64,000 bases of DNA from IMG/VR virus record IMGVR_UViG_3300027782_006229, positions 1 to 64,000 of that record; one strand, given 5' to 3'. Shown here one piece after another: positions 56,391-64,000 of the stretch. The stretch comes from a virus. Made by a program: the position numbers and the translations under genes. The notes beneath the pieces were generated by a model. The model did not search any database. It had not been told where the DNA came from and was given only the letters and a program-made list of their open reading frames with translations. The first letter of the stretch is position 1. Each line of letters opens with the position of its first letter.

Positions 56391-56633
56391 TCATATATCG
56401 AAGAACCCTTCAGCTTTAAGATATTTTTCAACTTTCATAAAGAAATTAATGTCTTGCAATGAGGGGTAATCCACATACTCTTTAGAAATATCACTGCCCT
56501 CAAAATCTAAGGATGCAATGTATTGTAATGTTAGATTTAAATTTGCTCTACATTTTCGTCCATGAAAATCAAATACTATGTTTCTTCGTAAACACTTGTT
56601 GAGCATTTGTTGTAATGTTTCTTCTTCTTTCAT
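56391..56633 (-). CDS. Hypothetical protein
   Basis: Start probably ATG 56633, just after tRNA-Leu. Confidence 0.5.
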   Translation of the reverse strand: MKEEETLQQMLNKCLRRNIVFDFHGRKCRANLNLTLQYIASLDFEGSDISKEYVDYPSLQDINFFMKVEKYLKAEGFFDI

Positions 56634-56642
56634 GTAGTAAAT

Positions 56643-56719
56643 TGGTACCCTGAGTCGGATTCGAACCGACAACACACGGATCTTAAATCCGATGCATCTA
56701 CCAATTGTGCTACCAGGGC
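56643..56719 (-). tRNA. tRNA-Leu(UAA), short variable loop
   Basis: Cloverleaf, loop TT-TAA-GA, ACCA. Confidence 0.88.
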
Positions 56720-56727
56720 ATTGAAAG

Positions 56728-56802
56728 TGGTTCTCTTGGATGGTAATGCTCCATCTTAGATCGCTTCACAGGCGATGACATTACTTTTATGATACGAAGA
56801 GA
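56728..56802 (-). tRNA. tRNA-His(GUG), atypical
   Basis: Loop CT-GTG-AA; T-loop AGCATTA; no G-1; A73. Confidence 0.75.
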
Positions 56803-56811
56803 TTTTGAAAG

Positions 56812-56886
56812 TGGTACCTGGTGCGGGAATCGAACCCACATAAAGGCTTTAGAAGAGCCTTGTCCTATCCGTTGAACGAACCAGGC
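56812..56886 (-). tRNA. tRNA-Arg(UCU)
   Basis: Loop CT-TCT-AA, ACCA. Confidence 0.93.
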
Positions 56887-56894
56887 ATTTAAAT

Positions 56895-56969
56895 TGGAGC
56901 GCAATCAGGGAATCAAACCCTGCTAAGCGATTTTGCAGACCGCCACCTACATCAGCTGGCTCATTGCGC
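56895..56969 (-). tRNA. tRNA-Cys(GCA)
   Basis: Loop CT-GCA-AA, U73, CCA. Confidence 0.88.
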
Positions 56970-56980
56970 ATTTGAAAATT

Positions 56981-57326
56981 GTTGACACTCTATTGAGTAG
57001 CTAATTCAACGAGTGCCTCAGAAACCATTCAATGAGCTTGTGCAAGCGCACCCAGTCAGACGTGAATCTGAACAGCCAAAGTGCCAGGAACAGCAACGAA
57101 ACTGACAGTTAGTTGAATATTTCTGAATATCGATAGCCGGTGAGGTATCCAAGAGTATCTGGTCTATCTACAGATCCCTCTCTGCCCATTCTCCGTTTGT
57201 AATATACACTTCATAATGCTTCCGTCCAGTATTATCATACTTTGCATTGCAATGCATTTCAGGTCTTACCCGGCCCCTCACATTATTTTCTCATTACACG
57301 CAACCTGCGTCTTTCCTTACTATCAA
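56981..57326 (-). ncRNA. Unassigned ~350-nt structured RNA in the tRNA operon
   Basis: GC-richer, no convincing ORF, multiple hairpins, bounded by the same AU-rich spacers as the tRNAs. Confidence 0.6.
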
Positions 57327-57329
57327 AAT

Positions 57330-57404
57330 TGGTGGAGCGTAAGGGATTCGAACCCTTTCTTCAACCGTGCAAGGATCATGTGCTACCATTATCACTAACG
57401 CCCC
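57330..57404 (-). tRNA. tRNA-Ala(UGC)
   Basis: G3:U70 pair, loop CT-TGC-AC, ACCA. Confidence 0.9.
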
Positions 57405-57410
57405 ATAAAA

Positions 57411-57485
57411 TGGTACCCGAAGTAGGATTCAAACCTACAACAATCCGCGTGTAAGGCGGGCGCTCTATCGTTGAGCTATTCGGGC
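57411..57485 (-). tRNA. tRNA-Val(UAC)
   Basis: Loop CT-TAC-AC, ACCA. Confidence 0.9.
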
Positions 57486-57492
57486 AATTTAC

Positions 57493-57690
57493 CTACTCTG
57501 AAACTTTTGTCTCTTTACGAGCATTTTTCTCTGCTGTAATTTCATTACGACGAGCTTTAGCTAGTACGATAATCTCTTGTAGACGCTTTCGTGCGTTTGT
57601 ACTTGCAGATGATTTACCGTTGATGAATTTTTCATCATCAATTGCAAAAGCTTCAGTTAGTTCTTTAAGTTGGTCATATGTTTTTGTCAT
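57493..57690 (-). CDS. Histone H1-like Hc1 family protein
   Basis: KF.NGKSSAST.ARK.LQEI...AK.RR.EI; has its own promoter. Confidence 0.75.
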   Translation of the reverse strand: MTKTYDQLKELTEAFAIDDEKFINGKSSASTNARKRLQEIIVLAKARRNEITAEKNARKETKVSE

Positions 57691-58150: not shown

Positions 58151-58224
58151 TGGATGCAGGTCGGGAATCGCACCGCGCTCTATGGGTTATGAGCCCAGAA
58201 TGGTCACTAGACCACTTACCTGCA
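58151..58224 (-). tRNA. tRNA-Met(CAU), initiator-like
   Basis: Loop CT-CAT-AA with three consecutive G-C pairs in the anticodon stem; T-loop TGCGATT. Confidence 0.75.
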
Positions 58225-58233
58225 ATTTGAAAT

Positions 58234-58397: not shown

Positions 58398-58443
58398 ATT
58401 TAAATTAATTACTCTTTTATTATAACTTATTTCCTTTTGAAAT

Positions 58444-58520
58444 TGGTCATCCCAGAGGTAGTTGCAACCTCACCATACCGGATTAAAAGTCCGGTGCCGG
58501 TCTACTGTGGCTTTAGGATG
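58444..58520 (-). tRNA. tRNA-Lys(UUU)
   Basis: Loop CT-TTT-AA, T-loop TGCAACT. Confidence 0.85.
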
Positions 58521-58773: not shown

Positions 58774-58782
58774 ATTTGAAAT

Positions 58783-58859
58783 TGGTACTCTCGGAGGTAG
58801 TTGCAACCTCATCATATCCGGTTAAGAGCCGGGTGCCGATCTACTGTAGCATCGAGAGT
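58783..58859 (-). tRNA. tRNA-Lys(CUU)
   Basis: Loop CT-CTT-AA, T-loop TGCAACT. Confidence 0.85.
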
Positions 58860-58867
58860 ATTTGAAA

Positions 58868-58942
58868 TGGTGGCGCATCAGGCTTTTCACCCTTCCTCTG
58901 GCACCAGTGTGGCCAGCGTGCTTTACCTTACACTATTGCGCG
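58868..58942 (-). ncRNA. tRNA-like RNA with no canonical anticodon loop
   Basis: D-arm GTGT/GCAC, stem CTGGC/GCCAG closing a 9-nt loop CACACTGGT, C1:C72 mismatch, ACCA end. Confidence 0.7.
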
Positions 58943-59268: not shown

Positions 59269-59277
59269 ATTTGAAAT

Positions 59278-59355
59278 TGTAGGATGGTTGCGAGGTTTTA
59301 CCCGAAACGCCTCACCATCAGTCTTTCGGCCACACACTAGCATTGCTGCTCTACA
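59278..59355 (-). ncRNA. Unassigned 78-nt four-way-junction RNA
   Basis: TGTAG/CTACA closing stem, AGCA-GCAA-TGCT and GAAA tetraloop hairpins, GATGGT-GAGG/CCTC-ACCATC stem. Confidence 0.6.
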
Positions 59356-59359
59356 AAAA

Positions 59360-59453
59360 TGGAGGAGAGCTGCGGTCCTGCCCCGCACACCTCTTTTTAG
59401 GAAGTGCGTGATGTTTAGCAAACATCCCTAGCGCCTTGTCTAGTTAACTCTCC
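59360..59453 (-). tRNA. tRNA-Ser(GCU)
   Basis: Loop TT-GCT-AA, long V-arm, T-loop GGCAGGA, U73. Confidence 0.85.
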
Positions 59454-59456
59454 ATA

Positions 59457-59537
59457 TGGGCCGGTCTTTGGTAAGTTTTCGCTATGCGAAGGTTTCTTTC
59501 TAAGTGCCTTTTTATCGGGTATGCTCCGGGCCGATCT
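59457..59537 (-). ncRNA. Unassigned CCA-ending structured RNA
   Basis: ATCGG/CCGAT hairpin, TTCGC/GCGAA hairpin, 3' ACCGGCCCA. Confidence 0.5.
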
Positions 59538-59544
59538 TATAAAC

Positions 59545-59621: not shown

Positions 59622-59632
59622 TTGAAAATTAA

Positions 59633-59724
59633 TTAGGCTGATGTGCTTATTCCGCTATCTATGCATCAATAATCAATATCTGGCTCCCACACACATCATA
59701 AATGGCCATTGACCTGCCGCCTAA
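59633..59724 (-). ncRNA. Unassigned ~92-nt structured RNA
   Basis: TTAGGC/GCCTAA and TGATGTGT/GCACATCA stems. Confidence 0.55.
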
Positions 59725-59726
59725 AT

Positions 59727-60153: not shown

Positions 60154-60159
60154 ATAAAT

Positions 60160-60226
60160 TGGACGGTGTTTTCTTTTACTTCAGATCACCGAAAGTCTGA
60201 ACTTCAGAGGTCGGGTAGAAGCCGAC
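60160..60226 (-). ncRNA. Hairpin plus H-type pseudoknot RNA ending in UCCA
   Basis: GTCGG-CTTCTAC-CCGAC; TTCAGA/TCTGAA with loop CGGTG pairing to 3' CACCG; then TCCA. Confidence 0.6.
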
Positions 60227-60231
60227 ATAAA

Positions 60232-60324: not shown

Positions 60325-60400
60325 TGGTCCCTGTGTAAGGAATCGAACCTTACCGTCTCACTCTTCAGGCGAGCGCAATCTCCAGATTTGCTTCACAGGG
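60325..60400 (-). tRNA. tRNA-Phe(GAA)
   Basis: Loop CT-GAA-GA, ACCA. Confidence 0.9.
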
Positions 60401-61393: not shown

Positions 61394-61410
61394 ATTATAT
61401 TTTATTTCCT
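61394..61410 (-). promoter_or_regulatory. AGGAAA-N5-TATAAT promoter
   Basis: AGGAAA TAAAA TATAAT, 6 nt before ATG. Confidence 0.7.
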
Positions 61411-62020
61411 AAACCAAAGATCTACTACCTTGAGCAAATTCAATAAATTTATAAAATTCATTTCTACTATTATCACCCGTCTCATGGAATGAACCAGACA
61501 TACGAGCTGTACGCATAGTTGAATTTTGTTTAATACCTCTCAAAGAACAACAAGTATGATTTGCTTCAACCATAATTGCAACACCTTTATTATTAATACA
61601 TAAATCACTAATATATTTGTGAATACTCATCGTTAAATTTTCTTGTACAGAAGGTCTGCGTGAAAAATAATCAACAATACGATTTAGTTTAGATAAACCA
61701 ATTACTTTACCATCTGGATCTGGTAGATAAGCTACGTGAGCATATCCAAAGAAAGGTAAGTTATGATGTGCACACATACTCACAACAGGTATATTAGTTT
61801 GACATACCATACCATCATATTGACCATCATTAGTAAATGCAGTAATTTTAGGTTCATCCATAAAGCAACCTGCTGCTAGATCGTTAACCCATGCTTTAGT
61901 AACTCGACGAGGTGTATCTTCCATATGCGGATGATTTTGCCAATCGAAGCCAAGTGCACTTAGAAATTGACCGTAAGCTTGCTCTGCTTGTTTAATATCA
62001 TATTTTTGACTCATATTCAC
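61409..62020 (-). CDS. folE: GTP cyclohydrolase I
   Basis: DTPRRV, SMCAHH.LPF.G, IGLSKLNR, VQE.LT, H.C...RG. Confidence 0.95.
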   Translation of the reverse strand: MNMSQKYDIKQAEQAYGQFLSALGFDWQNHPHMEDTPRRVTKAWVNDLAAGCFMDEPKITAFTNDGQYDGMVCQTNIPVVSMCAHHNLPFFGYAHVAYLPDPDGKVIGLSKLNRIVDYFSRRPSVQENLTMSIHKYISDLCINNKGVAIMVEANHTCCSLRGIKQNSTMRTARMSGSFHETGDNSRNEFYKFIEFAQGSRSLV

Positions 62021-62168
62021 TATATTATGGCTTATTAATTACAATATTCAAGATAAAAATAATAAAAAAATAGTCAGTTGATTTTTGATCTCATACCATA
62101 TTAAATAAAGTCATAACATCTAATAAAAAAAAAGTTGAAAAGATAAAAATACCAGCTATAATAAATGT

Positions 62169-62843
62169 ATGAGTAGCAGTATATATTCTTCAACAAAATT
62201 AATTAGTCTTGGTTCTTGTGCATTCCGTCAGTGGAGAGCAACACATAGTCATTGTTCAAAAATTCATGGTTATGAATTAAAAGCAAAGTTTAATTTCGCA
62301 GGTCCATTTTTAGATGGTCGTAATTGGATTATTGACTTTGGTGAACTTGATGAGATTAAAAATACATTAAATGGTATCTTTGATCATACTCTTTGTGTAG
62401 CAGCAGATGATCCTCATCTAGAAGATTTTAAAGCCCTTAATGAAAAAGGTATTGTTGATCTTCGTATTTTCGAAAGAGGTGTTGGTGCTGAAAGAGTTGC
62501 TGAAATTTGCTTCGAAGTTGCAACTAATTATTTAAAATCAAAATATGGTGAACTACGTTGGGTTGAAAAAGTTGAAGTATTTGAACATGATAGAAACTCA
62601 GCAATTTATTCTAATCCTCGTTATGTAGATAATTCAATTTTTACACCAACTACAGAAGATGCTGAAGCTATTGTAAAAACATATCTTGAAAATGAAGCTA
62701 AAAAAGCACAGCAACATGTAGAACAACAGGTAGCTGAAGTAGAAAAAGAACAGGTAGCTACAGAAAGTAATGCAGCTCCAGTAGGTAAGCGAGCAACTAG
62801 TGGTAATTACTCAGGATTATTTGCTGGAACGAGGTGGGGATGA
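62169..62843 (+). CDS. queD: 6-carboxy-5,6,7,8-tetrahydropterin synthase
   Basis: HC.KIHGY, W..DFG, FDH, GAE, V.VFE...NSA. Confidence 0.9.
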   Translation: MSSSIYSSTKLISLGSCAFRQWRATHSHCSKIHGYELKAKFNFAGPFLDGRNWIIDFGELDEIKNTLNGIFDHTLCVAADDPHLEDFKALNEKGIVDLRIFERGVGAERVAEICFEVATNYLKSKYGELRWVEKVEVFEHDRNSAIYSNPRYVDNSIFTPTTEDAEAIVKTYLENEAKKAQQHVEQQVAEVEKEQVATESNAAPVGKRATSGNYSGLFAGTRWG

Positions 62844-63583
62844 TATTTAGGTATACCTTCTAATACTTTAACAATATGTTTTAGTATTTCAGAACGTACA
62901 ATTTCGTTTATACCAAACTTTAAGCAATAGATCTCATTATCTTTACTAAATGGTGTATTGAATGCGTTGAGCACATCTCTAAATCCAGAATTTCTAATAT
63001 CTGTTTGAAATGTGTCACCAACGATTACGTACTTGGATTTATGTCCAAATCTAGTAAGAATGGTAGTTAGTTCTTCTTTACTTAAATTTTGTGATTCATC
63101 AACGATTACAAGAGATCGATTAAAGGTAAGACCACGACAATAGTTAACAGGTATACCTTTAATCATCTCACTTTTATAGAGGTTATCAGCTGTAGATTTG
63201 CTGCTAATTTCTGTAATTTTTTCAATTAGTGGCATTGACCACGGTAAAAATTTATCATTTACTTCACCAGGAAGTGATCCCATCTGCTTTGATGCAGATT
63301 CTACAATTGATCTGATATAAAAAATTTGATCAATATAATGTTCTTTTAAAAGATGTAAACCAGCTAAGACAGCAATATATGTCTTAGCTGTACCTGCAGG
63401 TCCGTCTACAAATACCATTTTCGTTTTATTTGTCTGTAATAACTGCAAAAACTCTTTATGTTTATCATTAAACTGGAACGGTGTTTTTATCTCATAATTT
63501 AGTACAGCATTTTTATTAATGTTTTCATAAATTTCTGCAACTAACTCAGGATTTTCATCCCGACGTCGAGGTTTTTTGGTCAT
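62807..63583 (-). CDS. phoH: PhoH-like ATPase
   Basis: GPAGTAKT, LPG...K, RGLTF, VDESQN, LTRFG, GD..Q.D, IVRS. Confidence 0.92.
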   Translation of the reverse strand: MTKKPRRRDENPELVAEIYENINKNAVLNYEIKTPFQFNDKHKEFLQLLQTNKTKMVFVDGPAGTAKTYIAVLAGLHLLKEHYIDQIFYIRSIVESASKQMGSLPGEVNDKFLPWSMPLIEKITEISSKSTADNLYKSEMIKGIPVNYCRGLTFNRSLVIVDESQNLSKEELTTILTRFGHKSKYVIVGDTFQTDIRNSGFRDVLNAFNTPFSKDNEIYCLKFGINEIVRSEILKHIVKVLEGIPKYHPHLVPANNPE

Positions 63584-63649
63584 ACAAATATTTAGAGTAT
63601 TTTACAGTAAAAATGTTGAGTTTTTGAAAGTGTCAATTATAATATAAAT

Positions 63650-64000
63650 ATGGATTTAGAAAACGAAACTATATTTTTATCTGACGATAAATTGTTTTAT
63701 ACTTTAGAGGGAGAAGGTGAATACATTGGGCAGCCTTCTGTGTTTATGAGAATGTCGATGTGTAACTTAACTTGCAAAGGTTTTGCATCAGAAAGCTCAC
63801 CTCATGGTTGTGATTCATATGTCTCATGGTCAGTAAAAAATAAAATGTCATTCAAAGATATTTGGGAAGAATTTTTTGTTAATCAAAATTTTGCAGATAG
63901 ACTTAGGAATGGTGCAATTTTAAAATTAACTGGAGGTGAACCTCTTATTCAAGAAAAACAATTAATTAAATTTGTTGAGTACTTAGTAGAAAAACTCGGT
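63650..64000 (+). CDS. queE: 7-carboxy-7-deazaguanine synthase (radical SAM), runs off the window
   Basis: Manual translation: MDLENET...FYTLEGEG..IGQPSVFMR...CNLTC.GF.......GCDS...LTGGEPL. Confidence 0.92.
   Translation, partial: MDLENETIFLSDDKLFYTLEGEGEYIGQPSVFMRMSMCNLTCKGFASESSPHGCDSYVSWSVKNKMSFKDIWEEFFVNQNFADRLRNGAILKLTGGEPLIQEKQLIKFVEYLVEKLG

Follow-up and report, generated by a model that had tools for sequence, protein, structure and literature searches.

Phage tRNA arrays are now viewed as devices for counter-defence and for the tuning of translation. They also carry RNAs that are not tRNAs, and to our knowledge no function has been found for these RNAs (RNA C and RNA D of T4, GOLLD and ROOL) in up to fifty years. 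Passages in two papers describe two small stable RNAs from the tRNA region of phage T4, with a role that is unknown (PMC3014915; PMC9697503), and one of the two places RNA C and RNA D among the late RNAs, with confirmation by Northern blot (PMC9697503). In the T4 annotation, rnaD and rnaC lie side by side at the end of the tRNA cluster. GOLLD is outlined in part of a further paper as having a constant 3' region and a variable 5' region, and both GOLLD and ROOL as structured RNAs of phages and prophages often located near tRNA islands (PMC12286853). Yrl RNAs, as introduced in excerpts from another paper, have paired ends, are modular and related to tRNA, and occur in phage genomes (PMC4201824). 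The subject here is an interval of about 350 nucleotides (nt) on the minus strand, positions 56981 to 57326, between a tRNA-Ala and a tRNA-Cys gene in the tRNA array of an uncultured freshwater phage. The window, meaning the whole stretch of DNA that was analysed (64,000 nt; IMG/VR virus record IMGVR_UViG_3300027782_006229, positions 1 to 64,000), is part of an 84.8-kb virus record. By comparison with its homologues, the interval is two separable RNA units, called module A and module B, and not a single RNA of about 350 nt. They are two new structured-RNA families that are absent from Rfam 15, and of a kind already known, the non-tRNA RNAs in phage tRNA operons. A literature search found no description of A or B; the IMG/VR catalogue of 8,495 candidate structured RNAs may list them (PMC10690425). 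On balance, the modules are probably two conserved, structured RNA genes of the tRNA operon that are non-coding, independent of each other and cut out as stable RNAs. The two modules are:

57130..57326, minus strand: module A, a structured non-coding RNA of about 197 nt (homologues in contigs L042, L041 and L088; RNAalifold; covariance model R2)
56984..57124, minus strand: module B, a structured non-coding RNA of about 141 nt (eight aligned homologues; covariance model R1)

The two modules share several traits with the described systems. Like RNA C (species 1) and RNA D (species 2) of T4, A and B are adjacent to each other, lie within the tRNA cluster and are encoded on the tRNA strand. The rnaC alignment has a tRNA-like T-arm and acceptor end, whereas A and B have no such arm. 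With GOLLD and ROOL they share the setting and the combination of a constant 3' unit (B) with an optional 5' unit (A), but the modules measure 140-200 nt (141 nt for B and 197 nt for A) against ~600-800 nt and more, and the Rfam models of GOLLD and ROOL gave no match in the window. The likeness to Yrl RNAs lies in the modular build and in ends that are paired in a stem; the difference is that A and B lack a tRNA-like T-arm and an Rfam match and that no Ro60/TROVE protein was found in four of four phage records, a host Ro60 being possible.

The division into two units follows from the homologues, in which the halves occur apart. A protein of 180 amino acids (aa) encoded near the array was used to fetch related phage contigs and returned 38 loci; a neighbouring 260-aa protein retrieved a single relative, and its contig does not reach the array. 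Pattern scans in IMG/VR and in metagenomes completed the contig totals. Module B is present in 10 contigs (the window, L042, L041, L088, L004, L006, L045, L129, L131 and L130, the last of which is cut at its 5' side) and module A in four (the window, L042, L041 and L088). Nine contigs show what lies upstream of B, and in five of them (L004, L006, L045, L129 and L131) A is missing; A, where present, is directly followed by B in every case (4/4). The clearest comparison is with L004, a very close relative (98% identity in the 180-aa protein), whose gap between tRNA-Ala and tRNA-Cys is only about 157 nt and matches the window's gap in its 3' part alone (nt 273-360, 96.6%). B alone fills the same gap in L129 and L131. 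It lies behind other modules in L045 and in L006, where the window's 3' unit follows a different tRNA-like module. Covariance models built for B (R1) and A (R2) found one A and one B in a complete relative of 224.7 kb and B only in a complete relative of 184.5 kb. R1 occurs as a single copy in each of five phage records and R2 once per genome; of two weaker second matches to R2, one (18 bits, record G003) falls inside a protein-coding frame and was rejected, and the other reaches 11.7 bits (G001). The earlier note on this DNA had described a single RNA of about 350 nt and had suggested collecting homologues and looking for covariation. Covariation is found in both halves, which bears out a structured RNA, and the 3' half on its own in five relatives contradicts the single unit.

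Searches were also made in wider sources. Low-stringency blastn against 50,697 records of cultured phages gave nothing for the window's 360-nt gap, and the A and B sequence of L041 gave just 22-nt chance matches (E 0.3) in the same records. A pattern scan of bacterial and archaeal genomes, one per prokaryote species, produced 34 stretches, none of them a homologue by nhmmer, and the metagenome scan produced 48 stretches with one true homologue (L088). Four candidates from the viral pattern scans (L046 and L133-L135) were discarded as chance matches.

Other unusual units were seen around A and B in the relatives. Just upstream of module A in L041 (780-919), and also in L045, lies a tRNA-like gene with a normal acceptor, D-arm and T-arm and an insertion of about 65 nt in place of the anticodon arm. 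A third module type of about 100 nt, with an acceptor-like stem and a CCA end, was observed in L006 (14546-14651), in L045 and in L041 upstream of position 780; it occupies the place beside B in relatives without A. On the other side of B, the tRNA-Cys position is filled in L088 (700-837, minus strand) and L130 (129-260) by a longer unit that starts like tRNA-Cys and continues with an insertion. At this place ARAGORN detects no tRNA-Cys, and the Rfam match, which resembles tRNA-Sec, stays below threshold (29.3 bits).

The structure of B is the better sampled of the two. The alignment comprises eight sequences and 166 columns, and the fold is a three-way junction closed by a helix of 10 base pairs (bp), with two hairpin domains inside it, followed by a 3' hairpin. 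Its elements in the window are:

57115..57124 with 57020-57030, minus strand: B P1, the closing helix, 5' strand AGAAATATTC pairing with GAATGGTTTCT (10 pairs, three compensatory)
57054..57107, minus strand: B 5' subdomain, swapped in the window (alignment)
57034..57053, minus strand: B H2, with the invariant block GCGCTTGCAC (three of four outer pairs compensatory)
56984..57017, minus strand: B terminal hairpin, a stem of 7 bp and 5 bp interrupted by a single bulged base, with a 9-nt loop (compensatory changes in 5 of 12 pairs)

The RNAalifold consensus of B has 44 pairs, of which 18 are compensatory, with pairing in 96% of cells. These values are reached by none of 500 shuffles, and sliding the partners by 1-3 columns leaves 0-5 compensatory pairs. 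Eleven of the 18 compensatory pairs lie in the closing helix, H2 and the terminal hairpin, outside the swapped domain; the others fall where the window's sequence is unrelated and its alignment arbitrary. P1, the 5' part of which overlaps the apparent array spacer, was recovered in single-sequence folds of four of six homologues, with a shifted register in L129 and L006. The terminal loop ATTAGCTAC (56997-57005) is identical in all eight sequences, as are the H2 block and several joining stretches. The 5' subdomain behaves differently. The other seven homologues share a canonical hairpin there, and the window and L042 are identical on both flanks of 57054-57107 and unrelated within it; the subdomain of the window has thus been swapped recently.

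Module A is known from four sequences that form two diverged lineages, the window with L042 and L041 with L088. The first two differ at five positions in A (manual count on the alignment). The fold is a four-way junction made of P1, the P2 hairpin, a long arm (P3/P4 with a variable arm) and the P6/P7 arm, as follows:

57319..57326 with 57130-57137, minus strand: A P1, the 8-bp closing stem, 5' strand TTGATAGT pairing with GCTATCGA (100% of cells paired)
57298..57310, minus strand: A P2 hairpin, ACGCA-GGT-TGCGT (pairs never covary; one cell broken)
57281..57286 with 57213-57218, minus strand: A P4, ATAATG with CATTAT (two compensatory pairs)
57224..57275, minus strand: A variable arm (alignment and single-sequence folds of the arm)
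57186..57195 with 57138-57145, minus strand: A P6, CGGAGAATGG with CCTCACCG (compensatory change of C-G to U-A, columns 147/204)
57152..57181, minus strand: A P7 arm, base AGAG/CTCT (compensatory pair, columns 161/190; folds)

The consensus of A has 39 pairs, four of them compensatory, with 98.7% of cells paired (RNAalifold, four sequences), and the slid controls give 0-1 compensatory pairs. For the paired cells, and likewise for the covariation score, the observed value is reached by one of 500 shuffles. In P1, two of eight pairs have one-sided changes (U-G/U-A or U-G/C-G). P4 reads GCAATG/CATTGC in L041 and L088, which exchanges AU for GC and UA for CG. The variable arm is specific to each lineage in length and sequence, and a hairpin is formed in every case. 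Four helices meet at a single junction, as in a cloverleaf, and P6 abuts P1, so that no linker separates the last arm from the closing stem. From these comparisons, the fold of A is supported but thinly sampled.

Four of the pairings listed in the earlier note find a place in these two folds. TTGATAG/CTATCGA corresponds to the closing stem of A, which is paired in all four homologues with changes from U-G to U-A; ACGCA/TGCGT is kept, with one of five pairs broken in one of four sequences; ATCTG/CAGAT is the apical hairpin of P7 and is replaced at its place by another hairpin, GCTGG/CCAGC, in L041 and L088; and the terminal hairpin is that of B, with its compensatory pairs across eight sequences. 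Two further pairings hold for the window alone. TGCAT/ATGCA sits in the variable arm of A, which differs per lineage, and TCAGA/TCTGA lies in the subdomain of B that is replaced in every other homologue. GCACTT/GGGTGC conflicts with the consensus of B, in which GGGT pairs with GCTC. The absence of known families that the same note had asked to be checked is confirmed, no Rfam 15 family matching either module. At E up to 10, Rfam gave nothing inside the gap within window positions 56600-57500 save a 13.9-bit match to tmRNA_permuted (E 2) that overlaps tRNA-Ala.

Conservation of the modules can be set against that of the adjacent tRNA genes. Between the window and L041, A is 77.5% identical including the variable arms, and tRNA-Val, tRNA-Ala and tRNA-Cys are 73.7%, 72.0% and 69.3% identical. 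Between L004 and L006, B is 83.8% identical and the three tRNAs are 77.6%, 71.1% and 92.0% identical. The modules are therefore held about as tightly as their neighbours. The helices are maintained through compensatory substitutions, and no reading frame is kept.

Three metatranscriptome studies of lakes yielded contigs that cover A and B at 100% identity. One of these RNA-library contigs (56896-57269) takes in the whole of B together with tRNA-Cys and a portion of A, and its end lies no more than 1 nt from the CCA end of tRNA-Cys; a second (57085-57311) includes most of A and the start of B; a third runs from 57190 onward through tRNA-Ala, tRNA-Val and a small open reading frame (ORF). The stretch 56600-56722 has no cover in the RNA runs. 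Such contigs show neither transcript ends nor levels, and RNA libraries can contain DNA, so the cover is a weak hint that A and B are transcribed.

How A and B would be made and used can be outlined from these observations and from what is known of tRNA maturation. In bacterial tRNA operons, RNase E cuts A/U-rich spacers just after CCA, and RNase P recognises the coaxial stack of acceptor and T-stem, about 12 bp long. A and B would be transcribed together with the tRNAs, and the host enzymes that cut tRNA precursors would free them from the operon transcript. Release in the manner of tRNAs is suggested because the modules share the A/U-rich ATTT punctuation and end in helices that resemble a tRNA acceptor; the candidate acceptor-like ends are P1 of A stacked on its abutting helix and, in B, the 10-bp closing helix and the 7+5-bp hairpin. 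The freed RNAs would persist as stable small RNAs, as positional counterparts of RNA C and RNA D of T4. They may then act in trans by binding a partner, protein or RNA, through the single-stranded parts that do not vary. The best candidate for this partner would be a host factor that normally handles tRNA-shaped RNAs, for which A and B would serve as decoy or scaffold.

Several results weigh against this account. The RNA-library contigs span the junctions between A and B and between B and tRNA-Cys uncut, and they may be of DNA origin. Neither module has an encoded CCA or a T-arm, and because of this, recognition of A and B by tRNA enzymes is conjectural. Ro60/TROVE, a CCA-adding enzyme and RtcB were all absent from the four phage records searched, two of which are complete. 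The family is small, with 10 contigs for B and four for A, all from related phages. The fold of A rests on two diverged lineages, and because there are just two, the count of compensatory pairs in A does not discriminate: 305 of 500 shuffles reach four, and discrimination comes from the slid control and the cell counts. Finally, the 360-nt gap folds no better than dinucleotide shuffles (z -0.52 and -0.71 for the two strands), nor do the modules alone (z -1.2 to -1.9). As the folding energy is about that of shuffles, the evidence for structure comes from the homologues and not from the window's own sequence.

A bolder version, which is a long shot, would make A and B the founders of new phage RNA classes active in the tRNA economy, either as a self-assembling particle or as an anti-nuclease decoy. 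The particle would resemble ROOL and GOLLD on a smaller scale, with contacts between loops holding it together, and the decoy would protect phage tRNAs from host defence nucleases that target tRNAs. The invariant 9-nt loop of B holds a self-complementary hexamer, TAGCTA, in a layout that recalls the dimerisation loop of retroviruses. Self-complementary hexamers are not enriched in seven sequences (0.04-0.74 of shuffles reach the observed count), which leaves the invariance of the TAGCTA-bearing loop as the only lead for assembly.

Descent from RNA C or RNA D was sought in both directions, and to the extent that sequence and covariance models can reveal it, there is no detectable homology to A or B. 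With filters off, the T4 region gave R1 matches of at most 8.1 bits and R2 matches of at most 4.1 bits, both opposite the rnaC/rnaD strand, and R1 gave nothing above 1.7 bits on the rnaC strand. In the other direction, a model of RNA C built from four rnaC homologues (R3) reached at best 13.3 bits (E 0.12) on seven array loci, a score driven by the T-arm of tRNA-Cys. The local alignment score of A or B with rnaD was reached by 0.15-0.42 of 500 shuffles. A further trait in common is that the middle subdomain of RNA C, like the subdomain of B, is swapped in one relative (KaAlpha).

A local motif of 20 nt was found in both the canonical subdomain of B (L004, 6160-6182) and T4 rnaC (L132, minus strand, about 2499-2521). 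In L004 it scores 26 against 15.1 +/- 2.3 in shuffles and is reached by none of 500; in L006 it scores 21 and is reached by 6 of 500. The motif is missing from the B of the window and from that of L129, where the score is not above shuffles. Three of four rnaC homologues keep it, and in KaAlpha it is replaced. It could be a chance match or a shared submodule.

Other explanations of A and B were considered. It is rather unlikely that they are a cis-acting element of the operon, that is, a structured leader or punctuation that serves read-through, stability or 5' maturation of tRNA-Cys. Such an element would fit the place of B, since in all 10 contigs the next gene downstream is tRNA-Cys or one that has been inserted ahead of it, and it would also fit the RNA-library contigs that bridge B and tRNA-Cys. 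A run of T follows the 3' hairpin of B, as it would in a terminator, but it starts 3-4 nt past the stem, the loop is 9 nt, and a consensus scan for intrinsic terminators gave no call for this hairpin. In L006 and L042 a protein gene stands between B and tRNA-Cys. A leader or terminator would not need the 9-nt loop and the many joining regions that never vary, and the other 22 tRNAs of the array have no such leader.

It is quite unlikely that A and B are decayed or expanded relics of tRNAs, tRNA-like pseudogenes carried without a function of their own. The outline of A invites this idea, since its four helices are connected as in a cloverleaf and the last arm adjoins the closing stem without a linker; A is also dispensable in close relatives, and several further slots of the array are odd and tRNA-like. 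Purifying selection on structure, however, is shown by the compensatory substitutions and the invariant loops, and the conservation equals that of functional tRNAs. Neither module scores with the Rfam tRNA model, neither terminal helix is followed by CCA, and the stretch 56970-57329 has no tRNA call by ARAGORN or by Rfam at gathering score.

A single RNA of about 350 nt that processes the array, as a minimal RNase P-like RNA or another new ribozyme, is very unlikely. The likeness to RNase P RNA is that of a conserved RNA whose two ends form a closing helix and which lies adjacent to RNase P substrates; the core is purine-rich and highly conserved with long-range helices, and the earlier note had seen short motifs in an order that recalls RNase P. 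In contrast to RNase P RNA of types A, B, archaeal and minimal T, A and B match no covariance model, have no P4 helix and are nested in topology. No RNase P family (models for bacterial A/B, archaeal, nuclear and type T) reaches gathering score in the whole window, and none matches at E up to 10 in the three homologues examined (the window, L041 and L088). The crossed pairings that had been proposed, GTGAGG/CCTCAC and GGCCGG/CCGGCT, fare no better: none of 11 pairs compensates, 7 of 44 cells are unpaired, and every substitution breaks a pair. The change of G to A at column 204 is matched by C to U at column 147 (the P6 pair) and not at column 59, so that the 3' strand covaries elsewhere and the P4-like pairing, or pseudoknot, is contradicted. 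The halves also occur apart, and A is absent from a complete relative.

That the interval consists of small protein-coding genes (29/37-aa or 44-aa ORFs) or a remnant of one can hardly be maintained, for although minus-strand ORFs of 26-44 aa are present, none of these is kept in frame in L041 or L088, no ORF is common to the four sequences with A and B (window, L042, L041 and L088), and substitutions follow helices and not codons. The ORF concerned is:

57168..57257, minus strand: 29-aa ORF MHCNAKYDNT..., not a gene (intact in the window and L042 only)

The loss of this frame in L041 and L088 agrees with the non-coding character proposed in the earlier note, and is the opposite of conservation confined to the ORF, which had been named there as an outcome that would speak against an RNA.

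Three further candidates were rejected. A group I intron does not fit the last base of A (G in the window, adenine in L041 and L088), nor does any intron family of Rfam match. For a sponge of the CsrA or anti-Shine-Dalgarno type, GGA and Shine-Dalgarno-like motifs were seen by eye only, with no Rfam match. A riboswitch has no family match, and the downstream element is an RNA gene.

With A and B, freshwater T4-like phages provide two further conserved families supported by covariation, both compact (140-200 nt) and modular. Their presence and absence between near-identical phages, together with the natural swaps of subdomains, make them tractable objects for the function of array RNAs. The analysis also disposes of the attractive but mistaken idea that the phage encodes an RNase P.

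The surroundings of the modules complete the description. The source is an uncultured freshwater phage that is distantly related to T4, an assignment made from its DNA polymerase sequence, which shares about 30% identity with the polymerases of T4-like cyanophages and Vibrio phages, and from the sequencing runs that hold the locus, which are freshwater and lake metagenomes. The tRNA array occupies positions 60400 to 56643 on the minus strand of the window. In the window as a whole, ARAGORN predicts 23 tRNA genes; at gathering score, Rfam has 20 matches, all of them to tRNA. An encoded CCA ends 22 of the 23 array tRNAs, and ATTT or TTT follows immediately 3' of 20 of them; the same punctuation (ATTT/TATT) also stands 3' of modules A and B. 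The immediate neighbours are:

57330..57404, minus strand: tRNA-Ala(UGC), upstream neighbour (ARAGORN; Rfam tRNA 49.5 bits; encoded CCA, then ATTT)
56895..56969, minus strand: tRNA-Cys(GCA), which in all arrays follows B directly or behind an inserted protein gene (ARAGORN)
56970..56983, minus strand: spacer AACAATTTTCAAAT, the usual array punctuation (letters; ATTT/TTT after 20 of 23 tRNAs)

The slot between tRNA-Ala and tRNA-Cys on the minus strand, as first noticed from the letters, is thus placed by ARAGORN as well, and the stretch does close with the array's usual spacer AATTTTCAAA.

Additional units of the array were noted. Four tRNA-shaped units with CCA and the usual spacer were read by eye on the minus strand (58160-58232, 58441-58520, 58780-58866 and 58868-58942), and none has an ARAGORN call or an Rfam match at gathering score. 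Two of the four resemble Lys tRNAs, with anticodon loops CTTTTAA and CTCTTAA and an unusual T-loop, TGCAACT. Three other gaps of the minus-strand array that hold no tRNA, 59269-59544 (276 nt), 59622-59726 (105 nt) and 60154-60231 (78 nt), each end in the usual spacer. They do not match R1 or R2 and may therefore hold other candidate RNAs. Within the array, a 65-aa ORF (57493-57690, minus strand) matches the histone H1-like protein Hc1 family (PF07432, E 2.3e-10) and is kept in the relatives L004, L042 and L129. Beside the array (61409-64000), ORFs have translations that we take to recall GTP cyclohydrolase I, QueD, PhoH and QueE, which would presumably amount to a 7-deazaguanine pathway.

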